64,000 nt of DNA, from contig OY762463.1 in the NCBI GenBank assembly GCA_963665815.1, forward strand, positions 1,184,001 through 1,248,000, given 5' to 3'. Under the pieces are notes generated by a model that was not told the DNA's origin, did not search any database, and saw only the letters and a program-made list of their open reading frames with translations. Numbering within the stretch: the stretch's first letter is position 1; each line of letters begins with the position of its first letter. Below, one piece after another: positions 1,441 to 64,000 of this stretch. Source of the stretch: Candidatus Cloacimonadales bacterium. GTDB lineage: Bacteria; Cloacimonadota; Cloacimonadia; Cloacimonadales; JAIOQZ01. The position numbers were made by a program, and so were the translations under genes.

Positions 1441-2790
1441 TCAACTTTCTCCCTCATTCAACTTCTCATACTGATAATTAAAAACTCTGTACGATAAACC
1501 AAGCAATTCTGCAGCCCTCTTTTTATTTCCCCTGGCTTTCAATATTGCCTGTGTGATATACTTGCTACGGATTTCATTCAAGACTGCTTCAAGGTCAATT
1601 TCACCATTCAGATCTATTATACACTCCAGCTCAGGTTTTACTGAAAACGAGAATGTTTCAGGGTTAATCACATCATCGGACAATACAGCTGCCCGATTAA
1701 TCTCACTTTTCAATTGTCTGATGTTCCCTGGCCAGTCAAACAGCATCAGCTTCCTTAAAGTATCATCATTTATGGCTTTATCAGGATACTTTTTCTTCAG
1801 GAAATAACGGGCAAGTTCCGGAATATCTTCTCTTCTGTCTTTAAGATCAGGGATTACCAGCTCAAAATTATTCAGTCTGTAATACAGGTCTTCCCGAAAA
1901 TCACCGTTTGTGACTTTATCTTTCAACGATTTATTTGTGGCAGAAATCACGCGGACATCCACATGCTGCGGATCAGATGACCCAATTTTATATACTTCTC
2001 CATTCTCCAGAACACGCAAGAGCTTTGCCTGAAACTCCAACGGCATCTCCCCTATCTCATCGAGAAACAATGTTCCTCCGTCTGCTTCGATGAATTTACC
2101 GTTATGATTAGTTACTGCACCGGTAAATGCTCCTTTCTCATGTCCGAAGAACTCGCTTTCAAACAAATCTTTCGGAATTGCTGCACAATTAACAGCTATA
2201 AACTTCCGGTTTCTTCTTGATGATATCTTGTGAATTGCTCTCACAATCAGCTCTTTACCCACTCCGCTCGAACCCTGTACCAGCACAGAAAGCTCTGTAT
2301 TAGCCACTTTCTCTGCCAGATTGCATGTATCTTTTATAGCTTTTGAAGATCCAATAATCTCCCTGAACGGATCGTCCTCGTATATCTGCGACTCAAGAGC
2401 ACTGAGCTTTCTGTTCAGCTCAACAACCCTGACAGCTCCATTGAGTATCGCCAGAATCTCGTTATTATCAAACGGCTTTGACACAAAATTATAAGCTCCG
2501 TCCTTCATTGCCTGAACAGCATGTTTTATCGTTCCGTGGGCAGTTATAAACACGTACTGAGCATGTTTCTGCAATACTTTCAGTTTCTGCATTGCCTCAA
2601 GGCCGTTCAGCAGAGGCATATTCATATCCAGAAGTACAACATCAAACTGGTTTTTACCGCATATCTTTATCGCTTCATTACCGGAATCTGCATCTATAAC
2701 TTCATATCCTTCTTTTTCCAGAAGCATTCTCAGTATTATCCGGATTTTCTCTTCATCATCTACAATCAGTATTCTGTTCTTTTTACTCAT
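1441..2790 (-). CDS. Sigma54-dependent NtrC-family response regulator (REC-AAA+-Fis HTH)
   Basis: ILIVDDE receiver, GSSGVGKE Walker A, GAFTGA, LFLDEIGE, WPGNIRQL, C-terminal KKRAAELLG HTH. Confidence 0.95.
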   Translation of the reverse strand: MSKKNRILIVDDEEKIRIILRMLLEKEGYEVIDADSGNEAIKICGKNQFDVVLLDMNMPLLNGLEAMQKLKVLQKHAQYVFITAHGTIKHAVQAMKDGAYNFVSKPFDNNEILAILNGAVRVVELNRKLSALESQIYEDDPFREIIGSSKAIKDTCNLAEKVANTELSVLVQGSSGVGKELIVRAIHKISSRRNRKFIAVNCAAIPKDLFESEFFGHEKGAFTGAVTNHNGKFIEADGGTLFLDEIGEMPLEFQAKLLRVLENGEVYKIGSSDPQHVDVRVISATNKSLKDKVTNGDFREDLYYRLNNFELVIPDLKDRREDIPELARYFLKKKYPDKAINDDTLRKLMLFDWPGNIRQLKSEINRAAVLSDDVINPETFSFSVKPELECIIDLNGEIDLEAVLNEIRSKYITQAILKARGNKKRAAELLGLSYRVFNYQYEKLNEGES

Positions 2791-3941
2791 TCTTTCCTCA
2801 TGCCAATTTTAAATTTTGTGCCGACACCTTCTTTGGAGATCACACTCATACTCATATTCATTGCGTCTGCCAGATTTTTTGAGATAGCCAGTCCCAGACC
2901 TGTCCCACCTTTTTTTACAGTAAAAAACGGCTTAAAAATATTACTGACAACATTCTCCGACATTCCGCATCCGGTATCCTCCCAGTATACATGAACATCA
3001 TTACCATTGATCTCTGTATAAATCTTAATCTGTTTACGCTCACTTTCAGAAAGCGCATCAAGACTGTTATTCATCAGATTAACCATAACCTGCCTTAAAG
3101 CATTCTCATCTGCTGAGACAAACTGCTTCTCAATACTATCACTTATTTCCACCGATATTCCCAGTTTAGACAATCTCTGTTCATACAGCAGTTTTACCGA
3201 ATTGATCAGTTCATATAAATCTACTTTTTCAAGGTTTATCACTTTGGGTCTGGCATAAACCAGAACTGACTCGGCAATATCATTTACTCTGTCAACCTCG
3301 CTGATGAGGCTGTCTGACAAATTCTTCAGTTTCTCATCAGGTACACTGTCCATAATAAACTGGATGGAGCTTCTGATTGATGTTAACGGATTCTTGATCT
3401 CGTGAGCTATCATGGAGGCTATGCTTTCCACCACAGACATTTTCTCATTAATAGACTCGTTCTTCAAACGTCTCTGCTCGTGAAGCATTCTTCTGGCGTT
3501 ACCAAGAGCAATTGCAGAAAGACGGAAAACCGTCATGAGAAACTCCAGAACTTCCTTTTTGAGAACTCCCGATTCTATCATGCAAAACCCAATCAGCTCA
3601 TTGTGAGATTCCAGCGGAAAAATGTAGTCGAACTCAATGCCTGAACGGACAACTTCATCCTTATAAACATATTCATAAGCTCGTTCTCCATGATAAAGCC
3701 AGGTTGAATTGGTTTTAAGCCAGTGAACAAGTTCCGAATCAGCAGAGATTTCCTTATTCTTTTCCTGACAGATAAATCCTGTTTCCTTCAGCTCAAAGAA
3801 ACTGACCCTGGTAATATCAAAGAATTCTATGATTCTTCCCTGCATAATCCGCACAACTTTATCCGGATCTACAATAATAGAATAAGCCGAGATAAACTCA
3901 TTAATGATTTTATTGAAATCAATTTTACTTTTATTGAACAT
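2787..3941 (-). CDS. Soluble sensor histidine kinase (GAF-like N-terminus, HisKA, HATPase)
   Basis: IAHEIKNPL H-box, QVMVNLMNNS, DTGCGM, FFTVKKGGTGLGL. Start moved to ATG 3941, which has a GGAG RBS. 4-nt overlap with the regulator. Confidence 0.9.
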   Translation of the reverse strand: MFNKSKIDFNKIINEFISAYSIIVDPDKVVRIMQGRIIEFFDITRVSFFELKETGFICQEKNKEISADSELVHWLKTNSTWLYHGERAYEYVYKDEVVRSGIEFDYIFPLESHNELIGFCMIESGVLKKEVLEFLMTVFRLSAIALGNARRMLHEQRRLKNESINEKMSVVESIASMIAHEIKNPLTSIRSSIQFIMDSVPDEKLKNLSDSLISEVDRVNDIAESVLVYARPKVINLEKVDLYELINSVKLLYEQRLSKLGISVEISDSIEKQFVSADENALRQVMVNLMNNSLDALSESERKQIKIYTEINGNDVHVYWEDTGCGMSENVVSNIFKPFFTVKKGGTGLGLAISKNLADAMNMSMSVISKEGVGTKFKIGMRKE

Positions 3942-4211
3942 GCATAAACTCCATACTGCAATATGAAGTATCTTCAGTATTTCTGTCAAGATAGCTTTGT
4001 GTAATAGCGGAATCGAGTCTACTGCTTCTGTTATGCCAAGCTCTCTGTCGTATATTACAGAAGTGAGGAGGAAGAAAAGGGGGAATTCTGTCATGTGGAA
4101 GTAGTATCATATATATATATTATTGCCTAAATGCAAAATATTAGTATAACATTATAGGTTTAATATTGATACTGGAAAAGTACTGCAGGAATGGCTAACA
4201 ACGTTTTATTA

Positions 4212-4293
4212 CCCTTCGACTCCGCTCCAGGAACTTCCAACTATTATCTTTATCAGTAGGTTAAATTGATTGAGTCCCGAATAATCGGGAAAA
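4212..4293. repeat. REP-like palindromic repeat, family A (CCCTTCGACTCCGCTC...GAGTCCCGAATAATCGGGA)
   Basis: Its reverse complement matches 7703-7769 and 10161-10222. Confidence 0.75.
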
Positions 4294-4338
4294 GTGGCTG
4301 TATGAATATTAAATTATATTAAAGGACACAGAAAACTA

Positions 4339-4423
4339 TTGACTTATTGAGCATAATTCATTCATTTAGGTATTGATACTAAAATCCATGTAATCTGTGA
4401 GGACTGATGAAATATCGCATTTT
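4339..4423 (+). promoter_or_regulatory. Duplicated promoter/leader/RBS block, copy 1 (begins TTGACT)
   Basis: 85 nt with 3 mismatches to 8152-8236; both copies precede the first gene of a propeller cassette. Confidence 0.8.
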
Positions 4424-5333
4424 CCTGTTACTCCTTTTCTGCCTGTTCCTGTTCTCCTGCTCTGACAATAAAAGTAAAGTCTTGAAAATGGAGGATATAT
4501 TCAAACTGGAGTCTGCAATAGAATTAAAAGACATAGATGAAATCCCAGTTTTTACATTTACTGAATTCGGTTTTTTTGCTATGCAAACTCATTCCAGCAG
4601 AGTGTCAAAGTTTCTGAATGATGGAACTGAGGAAAAAGTGTTTGGTAAGAAGGGAAAAGGACCTGGGGAGTTTGAGTGGGGCAGATTTTTGTCTTATTCT
4701 GAAGACATTCATACACTTGGAATATATGATATTCCAAATTTTAGAACGTTGTATTTCAATGATTCGTGCGAGTTTCAGAAACATGACTCTCGTCCAATTT
4801 CCGGGATTCCATACTTCAAACTCAGGAAGAATGATATTGAAGTATTCTCATTTTCTCAATTTCCTGATAATAATGGATTTTGGAAAAATAATATTGCTGT
4901 AAATGACTCTATCATTTTAAGTAATAATGAGAAGACAGATTCACAAATACCGGAGAAGTACTATCAATACAGCTACAATTCAGGCAGAATCATAATTTTG
5001 AAACCAGATGGAACAGACTTCGCGTTATATAATTACGACTTGGAAAACAGGAAGCTGAATCGCATAGAAACAGGTTCTAATAAGCATTACACAGTTAACA
5101 TATCAAGTATCAATAACGTACACACTATTGGAAAATACATCATAATAGAAGCCAGTAACACTGAAGATCGCCTGGAATACATCTTTATGAAGCAAAAAGG
5201 CAAGTACATCGGTACAATGGAGTTTGAAGAGGATTACAAAGCGATTTACGGTGTATATAACAACCACATTTATGTTGTTGAATCTGATGACTCCGAAGAA
5301 TGGATAATAGTACACAACTATATTCTGAAGTAA
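4407..5333 (+). CDS. 6-bladed beta-propeller (NHL-like) lipoprotein, paralog 1
   Basis: Lipobox LFSC; FGKKGKGPGEF motif; beta-rich, about 310 aa. Confidence 0.8.
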   Translation: MKYRIFLLLLFCLFLFSCSDNKSKVLKMEDIFKLESAIELKDIDEIPVFTFTEFGFFAMQTHSSRVSKFLNDGTEEKVFGKKGKGPGEFEWGRFLSYSEDIHTLGIYDIPNFRTLYFNDSCEFQKHDSRPISGIPYFKLRKNDIEVFSFSQFPDNNGFWKNNIAVNDSIILSNNEKTDSQIPEKYYQYSYNSGRIIILKPDGTDFALYNYDLENRKLNRIETGSNKHYTVNISSINNVHTIGKYIIIEASNTEDRLEYIFMKQKGKYIGTMEFEEDYKAIYGVYNNHIYVVESDDSEEWIIVHNYILK

Positions 5334-5345
5334 AATGGATCACTG

Positions 5346-6269
5346 ATGAAAGCGAAATACATTGTTCTACTATCGATATGCCTGCTGCTGTTTGCCTGTT
5401 CTGACAATAATAGCAAGGTCTTGAAAATGGAAGATATATTCAAACTGGTGAACACTGTCAAGTTAGAAGATACCGATTACTATCCACAACTTATTATTAC
5501 AGAGACTGGTTTTATTACATTTCAAGCTGACTTGAGCAAATTCACAAGATATTTAGATAATGGTGAAATTGTCAGTTCCTTTGGGAAGAAAGGAAAAGGT
5601 CCCGATGAAATAGAATTTGGAAAGAAGTATTATTATTCGAGTGATGAGGATATACTGGGAATCTTTGATGTTATGAACTACAAAATGACGTACTTTGATA
5701 AAACCGGATGTGTAGTTGAGCAGAAATCAGTTCATTTATCAGGAATACCATTTAGAGAATTAAAGATAAATGGTGTTCTCGTAAAAACACATACGAATTT
5801 CCCGAACGAAGACAATAAGTGGCAAAACACAATAACTATTAATGACTCACTAATTCTATCAAATGAGGAAACTCTTAGATCAGGGGATGTTACCGAACTG
5901 AATTATTATTTCTTCAGTTACAATAATGATAAAGTCTATATTGTGGCACCAAATCAAGGTGACTTTGATTTATATGCATACGATTTAATTAAGAAGAACT
6001 TGAAACATCTGAATGTAAAAGGTGGAAATAGTCATAAACAGATTGATATCCATAACATTATTGTAATCGGCAAATATATCATTTTGCCTGTTACCAATGA
6101 TGATGATTCCGGTAGTTGGCTTTGCTATAAGACTAATGGTAGATATGTTGGTGAATTGATTTGTGAAAATGAAAATGATTTTATAGTGAACTCAAATAGC
6201 AAGAATATGTACGTTGTTTCTACTGACAAAGAAGAAAACTATTCAGTAAAAATATACACATTGAAGTAG
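5346..6269 (+). CDS. 6-bladed beta-propeller lipoprotein, paralog 2
   Basis: Lipobox LFAC; FGKKGKGPDEI; clearly similar to paralog 1. Confidence 0.8.
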   Translation: MKAKYIVLLSICLLLFACSDNNSKVLKMEDIFKLVNTVKLEDTDYYPQLIITETGFITFQADLSKFTRYLDNGEIVSSFGKKGKGPDEIEFGKKYYYSSDEDILGIFDVMNYKMTYFDKTGCVVEQKSVHLSGIPFRELKINGVLVKTHTNFPNEDNKWQNTITINDSLILSNEETLRSGDVTELNYYFFSYNNDKVYIVAPNQGDFDLYAYDLIKKNLKHLNVKGGNSHKQIDIHNIIVIGKYIILPVTNDDDSGSWLCYKTNGRYVGELICENENDFIVNSNSKNMYVVSTDKEENYSVKIYTLK

Positions 6270-6282
6270 TAAAGGATCACTG

Positions 6283-7230
6283 ATGAAAGCTAAATACTTT
6301 AATCAATTATTACTAATATTTGTATTATGCTCATGCAATTATAGAATGCAGGAGAGGAAGCTTGCTTTTGATATAATCACAGAATTCAATCTCCCAGAAA
6401 TAATTAATCCTGATGTTTGTGCTACGAAAGATGAAATATTTGTAACAAATTTGGCAACTCAAACTGATGGAAAAATTTATACCTATAACTATCAAGGAGA
6501 TTTATTATCAGAATTTGGAGGAAAAGGTGATGGACCTGATGAGTTCACACATATTTTCAATATATTCTATGACTATAATAAAAATCTACTAGGAATATAT
6601 GATTTTTATGGATTCTGTATAAAGTACTATAATGCAAAACATGAATTGGTCATGAAAGATGTTCTTGACAAAACTATGTTTAATAAGGTTTATACGGCAG
6701 AATCAAGTCTTCAAAGTCACTTATTTCCAAAAGATAGCTCAGATAAGAAGCTATACTATTTACACGACTTACATCTGGAAAATGGAAATAAAATATCCCT
6801 TAAGGAAAAAGAGTTCTTATCAAGTGATGACTTCAGCATCTTCAAAGAATCAACAAGAATTGCTGCCAATATGGATTTCTTTTTCATCTGGGATTTAAAT
6901 GGCAATGAAACCTCTGTTGAGCAATTCGACGTGGAGGGTAATCCTGTTAAGAAATGGGATTTGAAGATGCTGCCAAGATATCTGGAAAACATTAAAAAAT
7001 ATAACAGAATACATGCAGGAGATGATTTCATTCTATACGATTTTCAGGACAATAATGATGTTCACTTCTATGACGCCTATGATTTCAAGAATAAATATCT
7101 TGGCACCATTAGAATGAGCAAGCCTGAAGACACAATCCCGTTTGTTTTTAAGGATAAGATTTTCATGCTGGAATACAATGAACAAGACGATGAAGATTTC
7201 TATGTATGTAAAATACTGAAAATGAAGTAA
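6283..7230 (+). CDS. 6-bladed beta-propeller lipoprotein, paralog 3
   Basis: Lipobox LCSC; FGGKGDGPDEF. Confidence 0.8.
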   Translation: MKAKYFNQLLLIFVLCSCNYRMQERKLAFDIITEFNLPEIINPDVCATKDEIFVTNLATQTDGKIYTYNYQGDLLSEFGGKGDGPDEFTHIFNIFYDYNKNLLGIYDFYGFCIKYYNAKHELVMKDVLDKTMFNKVYTAESSLQSHLFPKDSSDKKLYYLHDLHLENGNKISLKEKEFLSSDDFSIFKESTRIAANMDFFFIWDLNGNETSVEQFDVEGNPVKKWDLKMLPRYLENIKKYNRIHAGDDFILYDFQDNNDVHFYDAYDFKNKYLGTIRMSKPEDTIPFVFKDKIFMLEYNEQDDEDFYVCKILKMK

Positions 7231-7249
7231 AATCAACAAGGAGACATGC

Positions 7250-7606
7250 ATGCATACACTCATAAAATTCATTGCAATGGTAATAATTCAATCATCAGTA
7301 CTTTATCTTATAACAAATAAATTGATGATGATAAGCAACAGCCCTTTCGTTAAATCTTTAATCGTAACTATTATAATAGCCGCAATTGATTCCGGAGTTG
7401 CATTATTAGTAGGAGATCCTCATGGATTTCATGCCGGAATGTTTGCAAAAATTGCGAACTATCTGACAATTATACCGGCTATTCTAACTTTCAAAATTGC
7501 TTATGATCTTACAGTGCAACAGCTGTTTTTGTTCATTGTAGGTTACAGGATTATTCTGTTTGTTGTTGGTTTTACAATCATCCCCATAACAGCAGCAATA
7601 TATTAA
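7250..7606 (+). CDS. Small integral membrane protein (about 4 TM), unknown function
   Basis: AAGGAG RBS; hydrophobic segments; 19 nt after paralog 3. Confidence 0.7.
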   Translation: MHTLIKFIAMVIIQSSVLYLITNKLMMISNSPFVKSLIVTIIIAAIDSGVALLVGDPHGFHAGMFAKIANYLTIIPAILTFKIAYDLTVQQLFLFIVGYRIILFVVGFTIIPITAAIY

Positions 7607-7702
7607 TATAACATGATCGGTTCGGTTTTTTTGCCCTTCCACACCGTTCTCAGAGTGCAAAAAAGCAAATATTTTATAGTCAAAAGTAATTTATGACGTA
7701 GG

Positions 7703-7815
7703 TTTTCCCGATTCTTCGGGACTCAACCGACTTAACGTATTGATAGATATTGATATGATCGTTCCCTGACAGACTGTGTTGCACCTGACGGCGCTCGAAA
7801 AGCTGCCTGACAAAT
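7703..7815. repeat. REP-like composite repeat (family A plus CCTGACGGxGCTCGAA unit)
   Basis: 7722-7769 equals 10161-10208 with 1 mismatch; 7778-7815 resembles 10325-10361; inverted relative to 4212-4293. Confidence 0.8.
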
Positions 7816-7961
7816 CTCTTTTTACAGCAGAACTTGTGCAATTTAGTTAGACATAGCTGTCAGTATCTGTATTTCCTCTTTGTCACTTAAAGTCGTTATA
7901 GGCCTACATTAAGTCTTTTCAATTGCAAATTTGTGTAATCGTTCTATCTGTTGATAAAAGT

Positions 7962-8100
7962 AAATTTTCCCGTTAAGAAATCCTGAAGCCTTGGAAGGAT
8001 TTCAGGGGAGATTTATGGTTCCAGCTTGCTGGAAATACATTTTGATAAAGAGTGCCTTTCTTTTGCTTCGTTTTCTTTGGCACCAAAGAAAATGAAGAAA
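7962..8100 (+). repeat. 139-bp MITE/REP-like element, family B, copy 1
   Basis: About 90% identical by hand alignment to the reverse complement of 10423-10561; internal palindromes TTCCAGCxTGCTGGAA and CTTCGTTTTCTTTGG..CCAAAGAAAATGAAG. Confidence 0.9.
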
Positions 8101-8151
8101 CAAATATCAGGAGTTAAAAATATAAAATGGATTGAAAGATGTAGAAAACAG

Positions 8152-8236
8152 TTGACTTATTGAGCATAATTCATTCAATCAGGTATTGATACTAAAATCC
8201 ATGTAATCTGTGAGGACTGATGAAATTTCGCATTTT
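8152..8236 (+). promoter_or_regulatory. Duplicated promoter/leader/RBS block, copy 2
   Basis: Direct repeat of 4339-4423, offset 3813 nt. Confidence 0.8.
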
Positions 8237-9173
8237 TATTATTCTCCTTCTCTGCCTGCTGCTATTTGCCTGTACAGAGAAGAAACAAAATCCAACATTG
8301 GATGTTAAACAAATCAGTTTATTCAAAGTACCCGAACTGTATAAATCCCCGGTTGTATGTGCTGCTAATAATAAAATAGTATTCACTGACGCTGAGGATG
8401 GGGTTATTTATGTTTATAATTATGCTGGAGAGAAACTTAAATCCTTTGGCAATAAAGGACAGGGTCCCGGTGAATTTCAAGGGGTATATCATATAGTCTA
8501 TCAGGAGAATCAGAATCTATGGTACTTTTACGATCTATACCATTGGAAAATCCATGTTTATTCTGATACTTTCGATTACATCAAATCTGAGAAAACATCT
8601 TCTATAATTGCAGGAATGAAACCGTGGAAAGATAATGTTCTTATACAAGTAAGAATTCCGGTAAGTGTCGATGGATCACGAATTTTTGACGACAGGATAA
8701 AAGTGTTCAACCCAAAAGGTGAAGAAAAGACTATCAGGAACAAGCTGCTGAAATCAATAACAGATGTTGAGTTTATGCTAGAATACGGCTTGATGTTTGA
8801 TACGAATTCCAACAAGCTGTTTGTTCTGGATAAACAGCAGAATACTTTCTCCGTAGAAGAGTACACAGACGAGAACACAAAAATCAAATGGGAAATGGAA
8901 GACAACATAACTGTAATAGATAATGCGAAAATATCGGGTATCTATGCAGGAAAAGACTTTATCATTATAAAAAGGCTTAAACCTGAAGATGAGGAAGATA
9001 CATACTATACTTATTATGAGTTCTATGATTTCAATCAGCACTATCTGGGTAAGCTAATACTGAATAATAAAAATGAGTACATAATAGATGTGTACGAGAG
9101 CAAACTGATTAAACTTGTGAAAGACGAAAATGGTGACTACTCATGCAGTATTCTGGAGGTAAAGTTATTGTGA
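8220..9173 (+). CDS. 6-bladed beta-propeller lipoprotein, paralog 4
   Basis: Lipobox LFAC; FGNKGQGPGEF. Confidence 0.8.
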   Translation: MKFRIFIILLLCLLLFACTEKKQNPTLDVKQISLFKVPELYKSPVVCAANNKIVFTDAEDGVIYVYNYAGEKLKSFGNKGQGPGEFQGVYHIVYQENQNLWYFYDLYHWKIHVYSDTFDYIKSEKTSSIIAGMKPWKDNVLIQVRIPVSVDGSRIFDDRIKVFNPKGEEKTIRNKLLKSITDVEFMLEYGLMFDTNSNKLFVLDKQQNTFSVEEYTDENTKIKWEMEDNITVIDNAKISGIYAGKDFIIIKRLKPEDEEDTYYTYYEFYDFNQHYLGKLILNNKNEYIIDVYESKLIKLVKDENGDYSCSILEVKLL

Positions 9174-10111
9174 CAGTAGTAAGAAACTTCGCATTCATTT
9201 TTATTTTAATGTTCGTAATTTCCGGCTGTTCAGATAGACGTAATTCTGATGGAAAGCTATCTATTTTGCCAGTTATCAGCTTTGAGATAGAAGGAGCAGG
9301 CAGTTCTCCAATTGTACATGCATCAAAAGATTATATTTTCATCAGTGATATGCTTGATGGAATTGTAAATGTATATAACTATGAGGGAAATAAAATCAAA
9401 ACCTTTGGCAGTAAAGGAAAAGGACCGGGTGAGTTTTTGTCAGTATCGATGTTATGCCGGTTAGAACCATTAGATGAATTAGTAATATATGATGTTTACC
9501 AGAAGAGACTTTCATTCTTCAATAAAGAGTTTGAACTCAGCAATACCGTAAATATTCAGGAATACCTTTTGAGTATACAGCCACTTCAGAACAATTTACT
9601 TTATGTTACCAGAAAACCTGCAGAAAATGGAATGATGAGTGGTTTCAACGATTTAGTAACTATGAAAAATATTAGTTCTGATGAAAAAATCATAACTAAG
9701 AAATTTCTGCCTGCTTCTGATGATGTTTTAACTTATGTGGACAAAGGTCTGCTGATTGATACAAACTCAGAGAATTTGTTCGTTCTGAATAGAGGCGATG
9801 ATTTCGTAATTGAGCAGTATGTTAACGGAACAAACAAGAAAATCTGGAAATTGAATAAAGAAAAAATAAACATTGAGTTCACAAAACTAAATTCTATTCA
9901 TTGTGGTAGTAATTTCATCATTTTGAATTTGGTAAAGGCAGATAACTCTATGAACTATGCATTCTTTGATTTCGACGAACAATTTCTGGGAGAACTCAAC
10001 ATGAATACAGAAAATGAGTATATTATTGATGTACACAAAAACAAACTTATTAAGCTTGTAACTGATGAAAATGGTGATTACATCTGTAGTATTATGGAGG
10101 TAAAGTTTTAA
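9170..10111 (+). CDS. 6-bladed beta-propeller lipoprotein, paralog 5
   Basis: Probable GTG start at 9170 overlapping the upstream TGA, with a GGAGG RBS; lipobox ISGC; FGSKGKGPGEF; C-terminus close to paralog 4. Confidence 0.8.
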   Translation: MTVVRNFAFIFILMFVISGCSDRRNSDGKLSILPVISFEIEGAGSSPIVHASKDYIFISDMLDGIVNVYNYEGNKIKTFGSKGKGPGEFLSVSMLCRLEPLDELVIYDVYQKRLSFFNKEFELSNTVNIQEYLLSIQPLQNNLLYVTRKPAENGMMSGFNDLVTMKNISSDEKIITKKFLPASDDVLTYVDKGLLIDTNSENLFVLNRGDDFVIEQYVNGTNKKIWKLNKEKINIEFTKLNSIHCGSNFIILNLVKADNSMNYAFFDFDEQFLGELNMNTENEYIIDVHKNKLIKLVTDENGDYICSIMEVKF

Positions 10112-10147
10112 GTCACAGCACTCCTGGAATGACTGGCAACTTTTTTA

Positions 10148-10361
10148 CCTTTTGACTCAGCTCAACCGACTTAAAGTATTGATAGATATTGATATGATCG
10201 TTCCCTGAGCGGAGTCGAAGGGGAATCAGTTTTAAGTGAATGAAGCGACAAAAATCACTTATTTACTCAGTTTGTCAGAAATCACAGCAACAAACCAGCT
10301 TACTTCTCACTTTTAATTTACAGGTCGCTCCTGACGGAGCTCGAAGAGCTGCCTGACAAAT
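10148..10361. repeat. REP-like repeats (family A: CCTTTTGACTCAGCTC...GTTCCCTGAGCGGAGTCGAAGGG; second unit at 10325-10361)
   Basis: Matches to 4212-4293 and 7703-7815. Confidence 0.75.
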
Positions 10362-10422
10362 TTCATCGAAATCCGTGTATAAATACTTAATTCACCGCAG
10401 ATAAATTAAGATAAATATAATA

Positions 10423-10561
10423 TTCCTTCATTTTCTTTGATGCCAAAGAAAACGAAGCAAAAGAAAAGCACTCTTTTTTTAGATGTATTTCCAGCATGCT
10501 GGAACCATGAATATCCCCTGAAATCCTTCCAAGGGTTCTGGATTTCTTAACGAGGAAATTT
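10423..10561 (-). repeat. 139-bp MITE/REP-like element, family B, copy 2 (inverted)
   Basis: Reverse complement of 7962-8100. Confidence 0.9.
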
Positions 10562-10615
10562 ATTATACAAGTAAAAGAGAGAAAATACAGGTCATGATCT
10601 CTACATTATCCCCCC

Positions 10616-10653
10616 AAAAAAAGCTCTGCCTGACCGAACAGTCAGGCAAAGCT
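10616..10653 (-). terminator. Intrinsic terminator of the ABC operon
   Basis: TGCCTGAC/GTCAGGCA stem with an A7 run (U-tract on the minus strand). Confidence 0.8.
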
Positions 10654-10670
10654 CTATCAAACATCAACTG

Positions 10671-12071
10671 CTACCTTACGTCATATTTTCTCAAGACAAA
10701 CAGACTTGTGGCAAAAATCAGCAGATTGTATAGAATCAGCAAAGCGAAGGGGCTCACAGCATGCTCTATTCTATCTGCAACAGTAGACTCTGCATATTCA
10801 GAACTAACGAGTTTTTCAGGATGTTCAAAAGCTGCGGTTGTGAATGTATTCCTTCCATCACTCCATGCCCAGTTATAGAATTGATGCAGACTGTTCTCAT
10901 CTTCTTCATCCTGTTTCTTAGCTAGTTCTGACACCTCATCAAGTTTATTGTAAAACTGTTTTTTCTCATTCCTGTATCTAAGGAATCCTATATCAAGGAT
11001 TGAGTTACCGATCCTCCTGAGAAGTTCATAAGGAGACAAAATGGAAAGTTTTAATATCGTTTTCGTCTGGGCTTCAGCATCTCTCAGATACTTTTCCCAC
11101 TCTGCCATTTTCAGAGCATTGGCAGCTTTGACAGCTCCGGATCTCAAACCCTTTTCAACATACATATTACCGGCAACATAGTGCTCATTCTTCTCTTTAT
11201 CATCGTACTTATCACTCCAACGATTAAACTCAGCATTAAAAGCTTCATTCATACGAGTCAAGTATGCTCCAATTGCATCAACTCTGGTTAACTGATTACC
11301 AACAAGTATCGCAGTCTTTGGTATTATCACAATAAACAACAGCCAGCAGACCAAAGCCTTAACAACTGCCGAGTTAGCATTCTTTGCCATGGATATAAGT
11401 ATCCCAAGCAGTATAAAAAAGCTTATATAAATTATTGAGACAAGGCTCCATACGAGTGACTCTAAGATCAGAGAGCCGTTAATCCCTTTATTGAGAAATG
11501 TCCAGATAATAAGTGATAGAACCTGTCCCGCTAGTATTGTAACAAAAAACAGACTGAGAAGACTTGCATACTTAGACACAAGTATCTTATAGCGTGAGTA
11601 TCCTGATATAATCAGCAATCTCAGTGTAGAATTCTGTTTTTCCTCCGATATAACATTATAACTGAAAATGAGAGCTGAAAAACTGCACAAGAAGCCAATA
11701 ATGAAGAACCAGTTGATCCTCTGTTTATAGTCATCATAATTGTGAACAGCTTCTACCTGACGATAAGTAAGTCCACTGGAAAAACCTACAGGATACGATT
11801 CATCTCTCTGAATCACCATAGAGCTCAATGGCTTTCTCATGTAAGTCACTTTTGCATTTGCAATCATCCATGACAAATTTCCCGAACGCTCCGAAGCGCT
11901 ATTCTGAAGAATTTTATACTTGTTATTGTATTTATCAAGATCATCCCTGTACTTGATTGAATTGGAGAAAGCTCCTACAACAAACAGGACTATCAGGATT
12001 GAAAAGAATATCTGAAATTTCAGTTCTTTTACCAGCAGTAAACAGTCTTTTTTGTATAAATTATAAAACAT
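10671..12071 (-). CDS. ABC-2-type transporter permease with large extracytoplasmic loops
   Basis: ISEEKQNSTLRLLI..YSRYKILVSK motif; multiple TMs; ends KYDVR. Confidence 0.85.
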   Translation of the reverse strand: MFYNLYKKDCLLLVKELKFQIFFSILIVLFVVGAFSNSIKYRDDLDKYNNKYKILQNSASERSGNLSWMIANAKVTYMRKPLSSMVIQRDESYPVGFSSGLTYRQVEAVHNYDDYKQRINWFFIIGFLCSFSALIFSYNVISEEKQNSTLRLLIISGYSRYKILVSKYASLLSLFFVTILAGQVLSLIIWTFLNKGINGSLILESLVWSLVSIIYISFFILLGILISMAKNANSAVVKALVCWLLFIVIIPKTAILVGNQLTRVDAIGAYLTRMNEAFNAEFNRWSDKYDDKEKNEHYVAGNMYVEKGLRSGAVKAANALKMAEWEKYLRDAEAQTKTILKLSILSPYELLRRIGNSILDIGFLRYRNEKKQFYNKLDEVSELAKKQDEEDENSLHQFYNWAWSDGRNTFTTAAFEHPEKLVSSEYAESTVADRIEHAVSPFALLILYNLLIFATSLFVLRKYDVR

Positions 12072-12082
12072 CTTTCTTCCCC

Positions 12083-13669
12083 CTATCTGATATCAAACTT
12101 GTACATCAGGTAATAACAGACAATAAGCAGCACGATTATAATCATCAGGAACTGCAGCAAAATTCTGAACGTCCTGCTCAATGATTTGCCTGCACTTAAG
12201 CCTTTAAACTCATACTTAGGCAGGTCAGGGAACTTGAAGTCAAATCTTTCCAATGAGTTAAAATGTGCCAGGCAAACATCTGAATACTCTTGCTGAAGTC
12301 GAGACTTATCTTCCTGTGTCATCTCATGCCCAAGTTTTTTGATGAACTCAGCAGCAAACTCGTTCACATCATAACATACTTCCCCCGGTTCCATCATTGC
12401 ATAATACTCATCACTGTACAACCAGTTATTCTTGATTGCCAAATCAATAAGTCTGTTCCTGAGAGAAACTCCATCCCGCATAAAGTTGATCATATCATCG
12501 ATATCATATCCGGAGTTTTTCTGTGCTGCATCTTCAAAAAGAGCAATTGGTGATGCAAACAAATATAAAGATTTACTTCTCTCCTGCTTTTCCATCAACA
12601 AGAACAATTCCTGCTGTATGTTCTCCATTTTCTGCATCAGAGGATAATAGTCTTCATAAAACACTTTAACTCTGAGTGTCCTGTAATCTAAAACACTGCG
12701 AGTTGTGTACAGGATTGTATTTGTCAACCCTCTCCAACCATTCGAGTTATTATACCAATAAAAGAAGTCTCTTGGTTTATCCTGTAGCCGTTCAGAGCGA
12801 TCGAAATTATCAATTTCTTTCTGAAGCTCTCCAATTTCTTCTCTCATAGCTCTTTGCTGCTTCATTCCGTTTATTTTGTTTGAGAAAAATGAATACCCAA
12901 CAGGTACAAGCACTAACAGGAAAATCCAGATTGCCAGTACCAGAACAAGCGATTTTGCTGTTCTTTTGAAAACAAGTGAGCAAATCGTTCCAATCAAAGC
13001 AAAACATAAAACAAACAGGAATGCAAAAAGCAGATAGTTGACAAGACTAACATAAAAGTATGATGTAATATAGCTTGAATGTTTTATCACCAAATAAAGC
13101 ACACTTAACAGAGTAGGCACCAGTAATACCGTAAATGCGAACAGTGATATTGTCAGAATCTTTACAATCAGAAAGGTGAATTTCTGCACAGGATATGTGA
13201 ACATAAGCCTCAGAGTGCCGTTTTCTTTCTCTCCGTTAATTGTATCGAAGGCTATCAGCAGCACAAACAGTGACAGAAAAAAGGTTATCAGGAATGTTAC
13301 ATCCATATCAAACTTTGTGGGATGAACAGGATTGATTGTCTGTGAAAATGCTGAAGGTCTGGTTATTGATTCAAACATTCTGACTTCAATAATATTTCCG
13401 TATTTATGAGTAATTCCCTCATGAAAGACACTGAACAATTGCGGTGGAATTACAGCCGGTATCATCAGGTAACTATAGTTCTGAGATCTTCCAATTTCCT
13501 TCTGCAACATCTCATTATCATTTATATACTGCTGCTGTCGCTGATTGAACTCACTTAGACGCAGAGAGAATGTAACTCCAAACAGCACCATGAAAATACA
13601 AATCGACCAGATTACTCTATTACTCCTCAGAAGCCTTTTGTACTCGTGTTTTACCAATAGACTGAACAT
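12083..13669 (-). CDS. ABC-2-type transporter permease with large extracytoplasmic loops (paralog)
   Basis: FDTINGEKENGTLRLMFTYPV motif; ends KFDIR. Confidence 0.85.
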   Translation of the reverse strand: MFSLLVKHEYKRLLRSNRVIWSICIFMVLFGVTFSLRLSEFNQRQQQYINDNEMLQKEIGRSQNYSYLMIPAVIPPQLFSVFHEGITHKYGNIIEVRMFESITRPSAFSQTINPVHPTKFDMDVTFLITFFLSLFVLLIAFDTINGEKENGTLRLMFTYPVQKFTFLIVKILTISLFAFTVLLVPTLLSVLYLVIKHSSYITSYFYVSLVNYLLFAFLFVLCFALIGTICSLVFKRTAKSLVLVLAIWIFLLVLVPVGYSFFSNKINGMKQQRAMREEIGELQKEIDNFDRSERLQDKPRDFFYWYNNSNGWRGLTNTILYTTRSVLDYRTLRVKVFYEDYYPLMQKMENIQQELFLLMEKQERSKSLYLFASPIALFEDAAQKNSGYDIDDMINFMRDGVSLRNRLIDLAIKNNWLYSDEYYAMMEPGEVCYDVNEFAAEFIKKLGHEMTQEDKSRLQQEYSDVCLAHFNSLERFDFKFPDLPKYEFKGLSAGKSLSRTFRILLQFLMIIIVLLIVCYYLMYKFDIR

Positions 13670-13678
13670 AGCCTCTCC

Positions 13679-14416
13679 TTAATCTGCTTCAACAGATAAT
13701 GAGTTTTCTATTCTGCCTTCCATATAGTCTATATACAGATTTTCCAGATTTTCAAACTCGAATTCATCACGTCTTCTTGAAAGCACAAGTTCACCATCCT
13801 TCATAATACCTATCTGGTCAGCCAGTTCTTTAGCTCTGAATATGTTATGAGTAGACATCAGAACAGCTTTACCGTCTTTCTTCATTCTCAAGACCAGATC
13901 CTGAAAATCCTTTGCGGCTTTTGGATCGAGACCGGAAAAAGGTTCATCCATAAGAATAATATCAGCATCCTTAACAATTGCTATAGCAATACCTGTCTTC
14001 TGTCTCATACCCTTGGAGTAATAGCTGACCGGTTTGTTGATAAAGCTCTCCTGTAGTCCGATATCCCTGAGGATATTCTCAAGCTCGGTTCTTGATCTGC
14101 TTGTTTTGCTTAGATTAGAAAAGAACTTAAGATTTTCATATCCTGTAAAATTCTCATATAATCTGACATTCTCAGAAATATATGCAATATCATTCTTTGC
14201 TTCTCTGGAGTCCTGCACAGAGTCTTTTCCATTAATGATGATTGTTCCCTCGGTAGGTTTTATAAAACCGCAGATAAGGTTTATTGTTGTTGATTTACCT
14301 GCCCCATTCGCCCCGAGAAGCACGTAAATTTCGCCACTTTCAACGTTAAAACTGATGTGATCCAATGCGATCTTCTTGTCTTCATACCTCTTTGTTAAAT
14401 CCTTAATCTTTAACAT
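13679..14416 (-). CDS. ABC transporter ATP-binding protein
   Basis: GANGAGKST, YSKGMRQK signature, ILMDEP, H-loop. Confidence 0.95.
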   Translation of the reverse strand: MLKIKDLTKRYEDKKIALDHISFNVESGEIYVLLGANGAGKSTTINLICGFIKPTEGTIIINGKDSVQDSREAKNDIAYISENVRLYENFTGYENLKFFSNLSKTSRSRTELENILRDIGLQESFINKPVSYYSKGMRQKTGIAIAIVKDADIILMDEPFSGLDPKAAKDFQDLVLRMKKDGKAVLMSTHNIFRAKELADQIGIMKDGELVLSRRRDEFEFENLENLYIDYMEGRIENSLSVEAD

Positions 14417-14425
14417 TCTTCCTCC

Positions 14426-15850
14426 TTAATTTCGTGATAACTTCACCATGAAGTATATCAGCATTCCAAGTATTGTTATTGCCGCGAGAATCAGAATTAT
14501 ATTAAGCCAGATGTTGGACTTGTTCAAAATCTCCATTTTCAGTTCCTTATCTGACGTGAATATACTTTTACTAATATCTTTGCCCTTTGCTTTAATCCTT
14601 ACCTGATATATTCCCTGGAGTGATTTCTTATCAGGGATTATGTTGAATTTAAGCTTTTGCTCCTGCTCAGGTCCCAGCTTATCAATAAACTCAGGTTCAA
14701 TCACCTTTTCCCACCCTGATGGCATGAGCACCTCAAATGTCACATCCTTAATCACTTTCTTACCTGTATTCTTGATGCTGAATTGAGAGATTTCGAACTC
14801 TTTACCCTTTTCCTGCACAAAATACATATTGTCCAATGACAGCTCCATCTCGGCTTTGCCCACAGGAATAATCTGCAATTCACTTGATCCTGTCTCCTTG
14901 TTTTCCGAACTTAGAACATTTACACTAAACACCAGTGCTTCGTTAAACACAGATTCATCTAATTTTTCTGGAACAGATATACTTAGAGCTACATTATGAA
15001 CAGGTTCCTGAGCAGACATTGCCAGTGTTGAGATCGCAGCATTGTTCTTAGCATTAATAAAGTTGAAAGAGTAAGTTCCCGGTAGTCCTGCACAATTTAG
15101 TTTATACACCTCTCTTGAAGCTCCGAAATACTCAATTCTCAGATTGTAGATTGCTGATGCTGCAGTTTCAACTTCCTGGGAAAACACATTAGAGGTAATA
15201 ACAACAGAATGCTCCGCTGTTTTTCTCTTCAGCCACACCCTTTTCTCATCAACCTTACCTGCGTAAACTGCAGATACTGTTACAGCCTGAACATCCTTTA
15301 GCACAGAAAAATCTATTGTGTAACTTTTACCGGACAGCATTTCAGGGATATGATATTCGTAGGGTTGAGATATAATGTTCCCGGACTCATCCTTGAGCGA
15401 TACATACACATTGTATAGACTTTCAGGTCTCAGCTTCATATCTTTGAGAGTACTGATCAAATCATCTTCAAGAGCGTAAGAACCGGCTGAATTATTCCTT
15501 ATTTCCATCACAACTTTGTAACGACCTGTTTCATCTTTATATTTCTCTGCTTTCACGACAGTTATGTATGGATTTTCAAAGATTACTCCCAGCATATACT
15601 GCTGAAAATTCAGTTCATCATTCTCATACTGCAGCTTGATGTTCTCAAACTCATCTTGAGAGATGTACTTCTTCTCAAATAACTTTTGAGCTCGATTAAA
15701 TTCCTGCTCTGACTGCTCAAGCCTTTTCTTAGCTTTCTGTAATGCCAGAATACGGAACCTATCATCATTGGGATTATACTCCTGATAAGTAATTCCACTT
15801 ATGATGGACATTATTATTAAATTGATCATTAATAAAATTATTTTCTTCAT
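14426..15850 (-). CDS. Exported, C-terminally anchored protein: MFP-like alpha-hairpin plus Ig-like (NEW3/COG1470-type) domains
   Basis: Signal peptide from MKKIILL (GGAG RBS); helical hairpin at about aa 35-88; IKNTG...PSGWE...LGP Ig-like domain; C-terminal TM with a basic tail. Confidence 0.75.
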   Translation of the reverse strand: MKKIILLMINLIIMSIISGITYQEYNPNDDRFRILALQKAKKRLEQSEQEFNRAQKLFEKKYISQDEFENIKLQYENDELNFQQYMLGVIFENPYITVVKAEKYKDETGRYKVVMEIRNNSAGSYALEDDLISTLKDMKLRPESLYNVYVSLKDESGNIISQPYEYHIPEMLSGKSYTIDFSVLKDVQAVTVSAVYAGKVDEKRVWLKRKTAEHSVVITSNVFSQEVETAASAIYNLRIEYFGASREVYKLNCAGLPGTYSFNFINAKNNAAISTLAMSAQEPVHNVALSISVPEKLDESVFNEALVFSVNVLSSENKETGSSELQIIPVGKAEMELSLDNMYFVQEKGKEFEISQFSIKNTGKKVIKDVTFEVLMPSGWEKVIEPEFIDKLGPEQEQKLKFNIIPDKKSLQGIYQVRIKAKGKDISKSIFTSDKELKMEILNKSNIWLNIILILAAITILGMLIYFMVKLSRN

Positions 15851-15870
15851 TATATCTCCACCATTGATAT

Positions 15871-15886
15871 TGCATGCTGAGTGCCA
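15871..15886 (-). promoter_or_regulatory. Sigma54 (-24/-12) promoter of the ABC operon
   Basis: Minus strand TGGCACTCAGCATGCA, GG-N10-GC, 21 nt before the ATG; candidate enhancer palindrome TTGTAGATATCTGACAA at 15971-15987. Confidence 0.75.
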
Positions 15887-16058
15887 AAACATTTTTATTG
15901 TGTATTATGCGGAAAATAGAGGGTTTATAGTTAAGTTATAGCTCAGAGAAGAAATAGATACATTCCAAAATTGTAGATATCTGACAAAAAAGTAATTTTT
16001 ACACTGTCTGAACAGTTTTATGCTTGACTTTTTTTTATAAAATCTTCATATTGAATCT

Positions 16059-35885: not shown

Positions 35886-36100
35886 AATTTAAACATCACA
35901 AAACTAAATTATTTTTGTCAATCCTATTTCCATTAAATTACTGACAGTCCTTATTGAAAAAGAAAAAAACTCAAATTTCTGCTTAATAATACGGGATAAA
36001 CGTCGAATATATAATGAGAGCTTTGCATATAGCAAAGTCGAGTCAAATACTCCCATTAAGCAAAGATCTCAATTATATAATCCAGGGAAAGGAAAATATT

Positions 36101-36535
36101 ATGAGTACGATGAAAGCTACTTCAGCAAAATCTGTCTCAGCAGAATACTATGGACAGTATCCGGAAAAGACAATTGACGTAAACAGCACAAATGAGGCAG
36201 CTGCCGACAGAAGAAAAGATCAGGACCTTCTGGGGAAATCATTAAAATGGTTTTCCATTGTCAGCTGGGCTATTACTTATGTGATTTTTCTCATTGTTGA
36301 TGAGGGAAACAAAATTGCAGGCAATTTCCTGTCTACTACAGCCACTCACAACTACAGATTTTCAGGAATAACAGAGCATTTACTATTTGGTCTGCTTGTT
36401 ATTGGACTGATTATAAGTGGAACAGGTATTATAATTAACTTTAAAAGAGCAAGACGCAAATCAGAGAAACTAAGATTCTCACTTGTTCTTCCAGGTCTGA
36501 TCTCGCTGACCGGACTGATATTCTTTTCTATTTGA
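36101..36535 (+). CDS. Three-TM hypothetical membrane protein, paralog of 54619-54990
   Basis: DRRKDQD..KSLKWFSIVSW and INFKRARRKS; start moved to the ATG after GGAAAGGA. Confidence 0.7.
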   Translation: MSTMKATSAKSVSAEYYGQYPEKTIDVNSTNEAAADRRKDQDLLGKSLKWFSIVSWAITYVIFLIVDEGNKIAGNFLSTTATHNYRFSGITEHLLFGLLVIGLIISGTGIIINFKRARRKSEKLRFSLVLPGLISLTGLIFFSI

Positions 36536-41185: not shown

Positions 41186-41201
41186 TGGCATTGGTATTGC
41201 A
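41186..41201 (+). promoter_or_regulatory. Sigma54 promoter of flgB
   Basis: TGGCATTGGTATTGCA, GG-N10-GC. Confidence 0.85.
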
Positions 41202-41223
41202 TATATAAATGTCGGAGGTTTCA

Positions 41224-52894: not shown

Positions 52895-53597
52895 GTAGGA
52901 AACAATGATTATTGTTCTCTGTTTAGTTTCTGCTTGTAAGAAATACAGATTTCGTGAAGAATTCGCAGAATTATTCAGAAACTACGTTCGACTTTACACG
53001 CCTAAATTGACAAGAATATTCTCTCTTTGCTCTTTCTTCCAGTTTACCGGATTTTCATTTATATACGCTCTTATCTTTTCTAATGATTTCTGATTTCGTA
53101 CAATATGATCATAAAAGGATTTCTGCCATTGGAAATCTGGATAACCGTTTTCTCTCATGAATTTTGTCACTCCAATTTTAAAACCACGAATGATTGAAGA
53201 CAAAGATTTTGTTAGATATGATTGAACAACAGGTTCTTGTAGGGAACAATGATTATTGTTCCGTTTATAATCCTCACCTGCATTATCTATGAAAATTATT
53301 CCATGAATATGATTTGGCATGATAACAAAATCCCCCAAATTAACACATGGAAAGTGCTCTGGTATTTTAAGCCAGCAGTCTTTCGCATATAGCCCATGAG
53401 TATTCAATATCAATTTTTCGTTATGTATCACACTAAAATAATCAAATCTATCTTTTGTACACAATGTCACAAAGTAACATCCATTCGAAGAATAATCAAA
53501 ACGTTTTAGACGATTCAGTTTTCTTATGGGATATTGCTTTTTGCTGTCCATGTTATTCTCACCCAATTTTTGCGGAACAATGATTATTGTTCCCTAC
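52895..53597. repeat. Three GTAG-type REP palindromes (52895-52921, 53239-53264, 53573-53597)
   Basis: Shared core (GTAG)GGAACAATGATTATTGTTCC(CTAC). Confidence 0.85.
52994..53551 (-). mobile_element. REP-associated tyrosine (Y1/HUH) transposase, RAYT
   Basis: RLKRFDYS...YFVTLCT, VIMPNHIHGII (HUH), IIRGFK, WQKSFYDHIVRN, YINENP; flanked by REPs. Confidence 0.9.
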
Positions 53598-54618: not shown

Positions 54619-54990
54619 CTACATCAACCCGGAAAACACATACAGAATTATTCCCATAACAGAAACAACAGCCATCAGAATCAGTGAAACACTGAATCGG
54701 TCGCTTTTTCTGCGAGCTCTTTTCTTGTTGATGATAAGCCCGATTACACTCACAATCAAGCCGAGAATCATAGTCAGGAACAAAACAAATGCCGTATCGG
54801 GGTTCCAGTCAGTATTCTTCTTCACATCATAAAAACGATCGAAAAATGTCACATTATCCGGTCTTGCCTTCTGATACAGAATCAGAGCAACAAACATTAT
54901 AGCCCAGCTTGCCATGGCAAACCAGCTTATCATTTTGAACCAGATATCTTTTCTGCGTCTTCTGTCTCTAAATCCTGATCTATGTTCCAT
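54619..54990 (-). CDS. Three-TM hypothetical membrane protein, paralog of 36101-36535
   Basis: DRRRRKDIWFKMISWF..SW and INKKRARRKSD. Confidence 0.75.
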   Translation of the reverse strand: MEHRSGFRDRRRRKDIWFKMISWFAMASWAIMFVALILYQKARPDNVTFFDRFYDVKKNTDWNPDTAFVLFLTMILGLIVSVIGLIINKKRARRKSDRFSVSLILMAVVSVMGIILYVFSGLM

Positions 54991-58043: not shown

Positions 58044-58054
58044 ATTTCTATCCG

Positions 58055-59104: not shown

Positions 59105-59114
59105 GAAGTCTCCG

Positions 59115-60368: not shown

Positions 60369-60406
60369 TTCACATTATCCCTTGATAAACTCAAAATTCT
60401 TATACC

Positions 60407-63999: not shown

Positions 64000-64000
64000 T

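Follow-up and report, generated by a model that had tools for sequence, protein, structure and literature searches.

Three probably separate units in a Cloacimonadota envelope locus: a predicted sigma54-controlled ABC-2 core with a hairpin adaptor, a propeller lipoprotein array and a two-permease RND/TolC operon

What kind of envelope system is encoded where a two-permease ATP-binding cassette (ABC) transporter, an adaptor-like protein, a sigma54 activator with its kinase and a run of beta-propeller lipoproteins lie side by side? The question is raised by a 64,000-nucleotide stretch (the window) of the closed, 3.96 Mb genome of a Candidatus Cloacimonadales bacterium (C1:1184001-1248000; coordinates below count from its first letter unless prefixed C1). 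A sequence-only reading, whose listed open reading frames (ORFs) are all present where it placed them, had joined this block to a distant resistance-nodulation-division (RND)/TolC operon as two halves of one secretion or resistance machine, with the propellers as exchangeable subunits. We are confident instead that three separate units are in play: the ABC core, the propeller array and the RND/TolC operon. The block itself is very probably a conserved core of six genes, into which, between transporter and regulator, an unrelated array of propellers has been placed. As to what the core does, we favour, with a probability of roughly 0.45, an inducible tripartite-type exporter that would dock on a borrowed TolC.

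The six core genes lie on the reverse strand and encode the adaptor-like protein (14426-15850, 474 aa), the ABC ATPase (13679-14416, 245 aa), ABC-2 permeases B (12083-13669, 528 aa) and A (10671-12071, 466 aa), a soluble kinase (2787-3938, 383 aa) and the activator (1441-2790). A profile of 19 adaptors, searched against 201 genomes of Cloacimonadota, found the adaptor at full length in 16; a further 76 genomes gave weak matches only, nearly all on the hairpin stretch. The permease pair occurs in exactly these 16 genomes, and the kinase is confined to 13 of them. At 14 of the 15 other loci of the phylum the adaptor, permease and ATPase genes lie next to one another, the remaining one (L033) stopping at a contig edge, while kinase and activator stand directly behind the ATPase in 7 of the 15 and, in the sister genome G001, behind the propeller array.

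Outside the phylum, the adaptor profile recovered 190 representatives at E values up to 1e-30. Of 159 such loci, the best 80 were surveyed (42 of them shorter than 15 kb; genes in high-GC loci called by homology), which belong to Gemmatimonadota, Bacteroidota/Ignavibacteria, KSB1, Acidobacteriota and other groups; they contain the permeases in 66 cases and the ATPase in 65, with an OmpR-sized regulator in 37 and the same GAF kinase in 8. These locus counts overstate the number of tests, because related genomes are not independent. Other neighbours at adaptor loci include a serine hydrolase and S41 and S33 peptidases, and a permease-adaptor fusion protein exists (two members, both on short contigs). 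Seven operons (L032, L042, L075, L100, L103, L114, L115) carry four to six permeases per adaptor, which suggests that permease pairs are interchangeable on one adaptor. Two further loci (L062, L098) have the adaptor/ABC module within clusters holding SPASM and B12-dependent radical S-adenosylmethionine (rSAM) enzymes.

The adaptor, whose start we corrected to 15850, begins with a signal-like helix (residues 2-20, presumably cleaved) and ends with a membrane helix (447-473) and a short basic tail. Its predicted structure (mean local confidence, pLDDT, 82) places a hairpin at about residues 30-90 and then three beta-sandwiches, the last of which is a NEW3 domain (PF10633); the low global score (pTM 0.41) leaves the orientation of the domains unsure. 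Profiles of the hairpin match the Pseudomonas aeruginosa adaptor in structure 6vej, MexJ, MacA and MexA (E 4e-6 to 0.02), and the adaptor model TIGR01730 covers residues 36-83 only, at 25 bits against a cut-off of 94.9. The hairpin tip reads R53-L57-S64. An equivalent RLS tip contacts the tip of TolC in MacA, AcrA and MexA, according to passages of PMC3391258, and among 113 wide relatives of our protein the tip L and S/T are retained in 83 and the full RL[ST] in 45. Reviews list lipoyl, beta-barrel and membrane-proximal domains as canonical, and in the adaptors of RND, major facilitator superfamily and ABC pumps they place hairpin, lipoyl and barrel domains behind an N-terminal anchor (PMC4446572, PMC13328181), whereas the window's protein has none of these three domains, lacks an N-terminal anchor and is anchored C-terminally. 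A fold search with the model returned generic immunoglobulin (Ig) arrays only (TM 0.17-0.31). The description of this adaptor as unusual is thus borne out: it carries an RLS hairpin on a stalk of three Ig domains and is anchored at its C-terminus, so that by domains and anchor it falls outside the periplasmic adaptor family, yet its function may be alike. In longer relatives (P0022, P0027, P0029; 718-797 aa) the first beta-sandwich is repeated and the stalk lengthened.

Both permeases match PF12679, as do all 75 aligned family members (permease length 466-555 aa), and the ATPase matches PF00005, with DrrA, lantibiotic-protection and GldA types as its best NCBIfam models, all below cut-off; we infer a type-V (ABC-2) transporter. 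An AlphaFold2 model of permease B (pLDDT 91) combines a NosY-like, ABC-2 membrane core with two long helical periplasmic loops, whose similarity to unrelated helical bundles was weak and judged to be chance. By sequence, no solved protein comes closer than NosY (E 7e-20), which also fills the top ten fold matches; PmtD comes next, and gives a weak NCBIfam match as well. Domain DUF3526 (PF12040) is matched by 48 of the 75 aligned permeases, though not by the window's own two, and is present in most of the permease's Atlas neighbours at 0.97-0.99. In the literature searched, to which most subscription journals and supplements were closed, we found no published description of the adaptor, of DUF3526 or of the function of DUF5128 (the propeller domain discussed below), nor any account of propellers with ribosomally synthesised and post-translationally modified peptides, of propellers with a transporter and a peptide, of NEW3/COG1470 proteins with an ABC transporter or, among the papers listed, of such a sigma54-linked ABC system in Cloacimonadota.

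The activator has the receiver, Sigma54_activat AAA+ domain with GAFTGA motif and Fis helix-turn-helix of an NtrC-type enhancer-binding response regulator, and rpoN is present in the genome. The kinase (GAF-HisKA-HATPase) most likely starts at 3938, because its orthologues align from there and a sigma70-type site (TTGACA-18-CATATT, 10/12, reverse strand, 3989-3960) stands before it; the first 52 codons of the frame, which runs to 4094, are then probably leader. That site is a consensus match only, since such sites number 56 in the region against 50.6 expected, and a scan of the region for terminators likewise stayed at chance level. Downstream of 3938 the kinase has no membrane helix and its N-terminus is GAF-like (GAF_3 is matched by 7 of 20 family members), pointing to a signal sensed in the cytoplasm.

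Before the adaptor gene stands a sigma54 -24/-12 box (TGGCAC-TCAGC-ATGCA, reverse strand, 15871-15886), the sole perfect match in the window. Taken alone this is weak: six places match with at most one mismatch where 2.7 are expected, and 7 of 100 shuffles score equally high. We take the box as real because it is conserved across operons, and the proposal of a GG-N10-GC promoter for the ABC operon therefore stands on conservation rather than on the single match. Under a relaxed pattern, a sigma54-type box precedes the adaptor in 14 of the 16 genomes, against a background of 65 in 2641 upstream windows of this genome; in the other two, both without the kinase, a good box stands instead before a PDZ gene at the head of the operon. 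Upstream of the window's box, at a distance of about 80-110 bp, lie two tandem 14-bp palindromes (15963-15976 and 15982-15995; consensus TKACAAWWTTGTMA), to which the activator probably binds. A palindrome noticed earlier at 15971-15987 is indeed in the sequence, but turns out to be the junction of these two. In nine aligned leaders, picked by score, the spacing is 19-20 bp. Scores of at least 24/28 are reached in 9 of the 16 genomes, all nine with the kinase; four other genomes with the kinase score 21-22, and the three without it 19-20. Two places in this genome reach 24/28, one of them 15963-15995 and the other inside a gene.

Several points weigh against this assignment. The strict GG-N10-GC holds in only 8 of the 16 genomes; the relaxed pattern and the tandem-site consensus were composed after these sequences had been viewed; the predicted transcription start would leave the adaptor operon a leader of just about 10 nt; and the genome encodes 16 enhancer-binding proteins, so that the pairing of activator and operon has to rest on linkage and genome profile and not on neighbourhood alone. 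Since the kinase is confined to adaptor genomes, and box and upstream tandem site are conserved, the proposed association of this two-component pair with the ABC operon is upheld, and cognate sigma54 control of the operon by activator and kinase is predicted with high confidence. Elsewhere in the genome (C1:2488038-2492496), a PDZ protein with its own sigma54 box and a kinase accompanies the closest paralogue of the window's activator; orthologues of this PDZ protein head the ABC operon in G033 and G067, both without the GAF kinase. Another sigma54-like box (41186-41201) lies directly before a flagellar basal-body operon at 41209.

How might such a core work? In the model we favour, the soluble kinase would phosphorylate the activator, which, bound to the tandem palindromes, would switch on the sigma54 promoter of the adaptor-ATPase-permease B-permease A operon; this first step is strongly indicated. 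Two ATPases and the A/B permease pair would then form a type-V ABC transporter with large periplasmic helical loops. In the least sure step, several adaptors would be fixed next to the permeases through their C-terminal helices, and their Ig stalks would carry the RLS hairpins up to the tip of a TolC encoded in another operon, completing an envelope-spanning exporter. Going by the neighbouring genes, the cargo could be guessed to be peptides or damaged envelope material, which would make this an inducible envelope-protection pump; our support for such cargo is weak. The pump would need no propellers. The five propellers would be separately transcribed, probably peptide-binding proteins (immunity, decoy or receptor) that change by patchwise allele exchange.

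Propeller and TolC linkage were counted over 95 adaptor loci, 49 of them at least 15 kb long, from which distant propellers may escape. A TolC gene stands directly before the adaptor at two of them (L109, L125), and TolC-family genes are found in all 16 adaptor genomes of the phylum. On the other side, these two are the only loci among the 95 with TolC in the adaptor operon (at two more, L064 and L080, TolC belongs to other pumps, giving 4 of 95 overall); each of the seven TolCs found in this genome lies in an operon with its own adaptor; and a search of the 201 genomes with the L125 TolC gave no orthologue at E 1e-25. The same query gave clear matches in two of five genomes from other loci. 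Among 19 near relatives of the adaptor, the tip R is replaced by N in 16 and the full motif kept in 2; the RLS motif is in any case not absolutely conserved, and hairpin adaptors occur in Gram-positive bacteria too, according to sections of PMC4446572. The closest solved permease, NosY, is no exporter, and parts of PMC4176598 describe a Caulobacter ABC-2 pair, znuHI, as zinc-repressed and placed beside a TonB-dependent receptor; the same Caulobacter species also has DUF3526. A complex prediction for permease B with the adaptor scored 0.00, with controls not folded, and is not used as evidence.

The NosY likeness, the DUF3526 matches, the partnership of NosFY with NosD and the zinc repression of znuHI lend some probability to a mechanical and an uptake role. 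In the mechanical one, ATP hydrolysis would transport nothing and would instead move the loops and the Ig-stalk protein so that they work on a client in the periplasm or outer membrane (a PDZ protein, a protease or a lipoprotein); the hairpin would serve as an oligomerisation or contact arm without TolC, and the sigma54 regulation would be unchanged. NosDFY is a system of this kind, with a mechanical role driven by ATP hydrolysis. Besides the NosY matches in sequence and fold, the mechanical reading is favoured by the described action of NosFY with periplasmic NosD and the lipoprotein NosL (sections of PMC8457098), by the rarity of TolC linkage, and by the PDZ gene, which is found in 43 of the 80 outside loci and heads the operon in 2 of the 15 other loci of the phylum. 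Yet in all these phyla the hairpin has exactly the length and the spacing of tip residues seen in adaptors that dock on TolC, two loci do have TolC in the operon, and the NosY likeness is limited to the membrane core. Clustering of the ORFs at 96 loci showed neither nosD nor nosZ as a recurring neighbour. We consider a transport-free mechanical device unlikely, while giving it more credence than the other alternatives to an exporter on a borrowed TolC.

The next alternative depends on the array. A leader (4310-4406, forward strand), of which the only other copy in the genome is at 8123-8219, precedes propeller lipoproteins 1 (4407-5333, 308 aa), 2 (5346-6269, 307 aa) and 3 (6283-7230, 315 aa) and a small hydrophobic protein of no family (7250-7606, 118 aa; one weak paralogue in the genome). 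Intergenic repeats follow (7700-8100; 20-38 matching places in the genome, with related pieces at about 4200-4295 and 10130-10570), which we take to be REP-like (repetitive extragenic palindromic), and then, after the second leader copy, propellers 4 (8220-9173, 317 aa; close relatives in this genus only) and 5 (9170-10111, with a probable GTG start at 9170 in a frame open from 9143), all on the forward strand. The five lipobox proteins share 21-39% pairwise identity. PF17170 (DUF5128) is above cut-off in 3, 4 and 5 and in the RND-operon propeller at 60407; the other two join the family by pairwise similarity (Atlas value for an array gene, 0.95). Membership in this six-bladed propeller family is thus read from sequence (PF17170 and lipobox). 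We regard the array as a probable genus-specific insertion between permease A and kinase: its strand is opposite to that of the ABC operon, it has its own leader in two copies and repeats on its flanks, no sigma54 box or tandem site was found before it, and it is missing from 14 of the 15 other loci of the phylum. A Y1 transposase-like gene (52994-53566, weak PF01797) and the repeats together presumably resemble a REP/RAYT system.

Propellers are widespread in this genome, with 51 genes in 30 loci, and the view that they are tied to transporters does not hold: at 23 of the 30 loci, none of the nearest two genes on either side encodes an rSAM enzyme, an ABC exporter, an RND protein or such a permease. 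The seven that do, against a background of 3.3%, include both loci of the window. Nor do propellers accompany the adaptor, since a broadened profile found them at only 4 of the 95 adaptor loci (G001, L052, L102, L120). Among the 16 adaptor genomes, 6 have a PF17170 match and the near-closed G019, G036 and G048 have none, by a model that misses some members. A motif, GxKGxGPxE, had been cited as common to array and RND operon; it is present in all five array genes, but 60407 reads CSKGMGPGE and 58055 has no such motif, and the looser GxxGxGPxE, found in 25 of the 51 propellers of the genome, is too widespread to tie the two loci together. Five other propeller lipoproteins make up a second tandem array (C1:311499-316572), which forms its own tree group and has no transporter beside it. 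Two rSAM/SPASM peptide clusters (C1:587828-590540 and C1:1662500-1667888) each hold a propeller and a Cys-containing precursor ORF; the rSAM enzyme of the former scores best as CcpM, below cut-off. Cys-rich peptides of this genome are encoded at C1:589338-589565 and C1:1667670-1667888.

The array does vary, as had been proposed. Set against sister genome G001, its genes are 96-100% identical in some blocks and drop to 38-66% in the patches between them; over 4407-7230 (compared with L040/L142) the mosaic has sharp edges between identical blocks and blocks of about 45-55% identity. Residues ~107-155 of propeller 2 diverge strongly between nearly identical flanks, and residues ~37-185 of propeller 3 diverge before a C-terminal part that is 96-100% identical. 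The array propellers have dN/dS of 0.15-0.36, where the ABC and regulator genes stay at 0.01-0.07, and their dS lies below that of the ABC operon, being low over array and kinase. In this one genome pair, the mosaic and the low dS suggest recent patchwise exchange of alleles, a pattern that would be expected of ligand-binding or immunity proteins. Gene conversion from paralogues was considered as a source of the patches and found unsupported, each sister patch matching its own orthologue best; spread of propellers along with the intergenic repeats was likewise set aside (outside the array, 1 of 46 lies near a repeat, against 36 of 999 other genes).

Such variation invites a local defence against peptides, in which this genus would have recruited the array so that its propellers catch foreign peptides and pass them to the ABC transporter, much as in lantibiotic immunity the lipoprotein LanI works with the ABC-2 pump LanFEG. 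Mosaic alleles and raised dN/dS agree with this, as do three unrelated loci (L102, L120, L052) with a propeller in or beside the operon, the excess of propeller loci near rSAM enzymes, exporters, RND genes or permeases, the two propeller loci with Cys-rich precursor ORFs, and an ATPase that scores near lantibiotic-protection and Pmt types. It has to contend with an array that lies on the opposite strand under its own duplicated leaders, with neither sigma54 box nor tandem site, and that is absent from nearly all other loci of the phylum, including near-closed genomes without a PF17170 match; with repeat elements on the array's flanks; and with a mosaic seen in a single genome pair. The joint encoding and joint regulation of lipoprotein and pump that mark LanI systems are not seen here. 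We judge such a defence improbable, and the conjunction of an Ig-stalk pump on a shared TolC with array propellers feeding it foreign peptides somewhat more so.

Less probable again is a role in uptake or metal handling, as in Caulobacter ZnuGHI, in which the Ig-stalk protein would be a capture arm in the periplasm. DUF3526, found in many of our aligned permeases and in Caulobacter, speaks for it, as does the Zur repression of znuHI described in parts of PMC4176598, which itself calls the uptake role putative. No family of TonB-dependent receptors or binding proteins recurs among the listed neighbour-ORF clusters, however, and the core is controlled by two-component systems. We presume ZnuH and ZnuI to be the Caulobacter DUF3526 proteins.

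This leaves the RND/TolC operon (reverse strand, 54996-64000 and on past the window). It encodes an RND permease (54996-58043), a propeller (58055-59140), TolC (59115-60368), a second propeller (60407-61477) and a second RND permease (from 61474 to beyond the window), and its own canonical adaptor lies just outside (C1:1248638-1249747), giving the order adaptor-RND-propeller-TolC-propeller-RND. Here the claim that propellers are regular parts of the operon was confirmed, since they occur in 11 of 12 related loci fetched, one (L135) by a weak match. Orthologues of the RND genes at 42% identity or more are found in 10 of the 201 genomes, all 10 with PF17170 and 4 with the ABC-core adaptor; a further genome (G184) has the adaptor and a 34% match. 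Most probably the operon encodes a two-permease pump in its own right, with a dedicated adaptor and propellers of its own, and propellers would appear to go with RND pumps and peptide clusters, not with the ABC core. The one-machine model can claim that 4 of 10 close-RND genomes hold the ABC-core adaptor (5 of 11 with G184), above the 16/201 rate, and that the window's TolC could be the borrowed channel, but is very improbable and largely refuted by the genome profile: at E 1e-150 an RND orthologue is missing from 11 of the 16 adaptor genomes, and the adaptor from 6 of the 10 RND genomes. All three conditions that had been named as refuting this model (co-occurrence, scatter of the propellers, shared regulation) came out against it: besides the results above, a scan upstream of the RND operon found neither sigma54 box nor tandem site, the operon has its own adaptor, and array and RND propellers fall in different parts of a quick tree with long branches.

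In that tree, however, array genes 1 and 2 cluster with one RND-side propeller from a different genome (L129). At L132 (6114-18955), three rSAM-like enzymes, two Cys-rich precursors and three propellers are joined to a two-permease RND pump, along with an ABC exporter and an S41 peptidase; at L131 (7410-14878), secreted Cys-rich mini-proteins, a thioredoxin-like and a membrane protein, propellers and an ABC exporter precede TolC-RND-adaptor-RND. A small three-helix membrane protein closes the window's RND operon (54619-54990) and looks like another at 36014-36535; its product is 99% identical in the sister genome, where its neighbours are 58-88%.

If the adaptor of the ABC core does dock on TolC, the hairpin would be a portable docking module, ABC-2 permeases would be able to drive tripartite export, and a family spread across Cloacimonadota, Bacteroidota, Gemmatimonadota, Acidobacteriota and KSB1 would gain a function. 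Activator, promoter and predicted binding site offer a direct reporter for tracing the inducing signal, and the mosaic alleles a testable handle on a large lipoprotein family without a known ligand. What the window contributes is this regulator with its candidate binding site, an exact genome profile and the mosaic array.

Set beside known systems, the core resembles MacAB-TolC and other tripartite pumps (MacA, AcrA, MexA, HlyD) in pairing an ABC energiser with an alpha-hairpin protein whose tip reads RxxxLxxxxxxS, and differs in its three Ig-like domains and C-terminal anchor (in place of lipoyl, barrel and membrane-proximal domains and an N-terminal one), in its ABC-2 permease pair (rather than MacB or HlyB) and in the rarity of TolC in its operon. 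NosDFY(L) has the closest solved permease and a periplasmic partner protein, whereas the core has two different permeases, each about twice the size of NosY and with large helical loops, a membrane-anchored Ig protein as partner, and no nosZ or nosD seen at its loci. Caulobacter ZnuGHI and its DUF3526 relatives likewise combine an ATPase with two ABC-2 permeases; the core shows no TonB-dependent receptor or Zur control, and brings a hairpin/Ig adaptor and sigma54 two-component control. PmtCD and LanFEG/LanI are likewise of ABC-2 type, with permeases in pairs, lipoproteins close by and a two-component system, but are Gram-positive systems without an envelope-spanning adaptor, and here the lipoproteins are no conserved part. 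MdtABC-TolC and MuxABC-OpmB are two-permease RND pumps, and the second locus matches them in having one adaptor, two RND permeases and one outer-membrane channel; its permeases score far below the MdtB and MdtC cut-offs, and it is set apart by propeller genes in nearly all related loci, some of them within Cys-rich peptide clusters.

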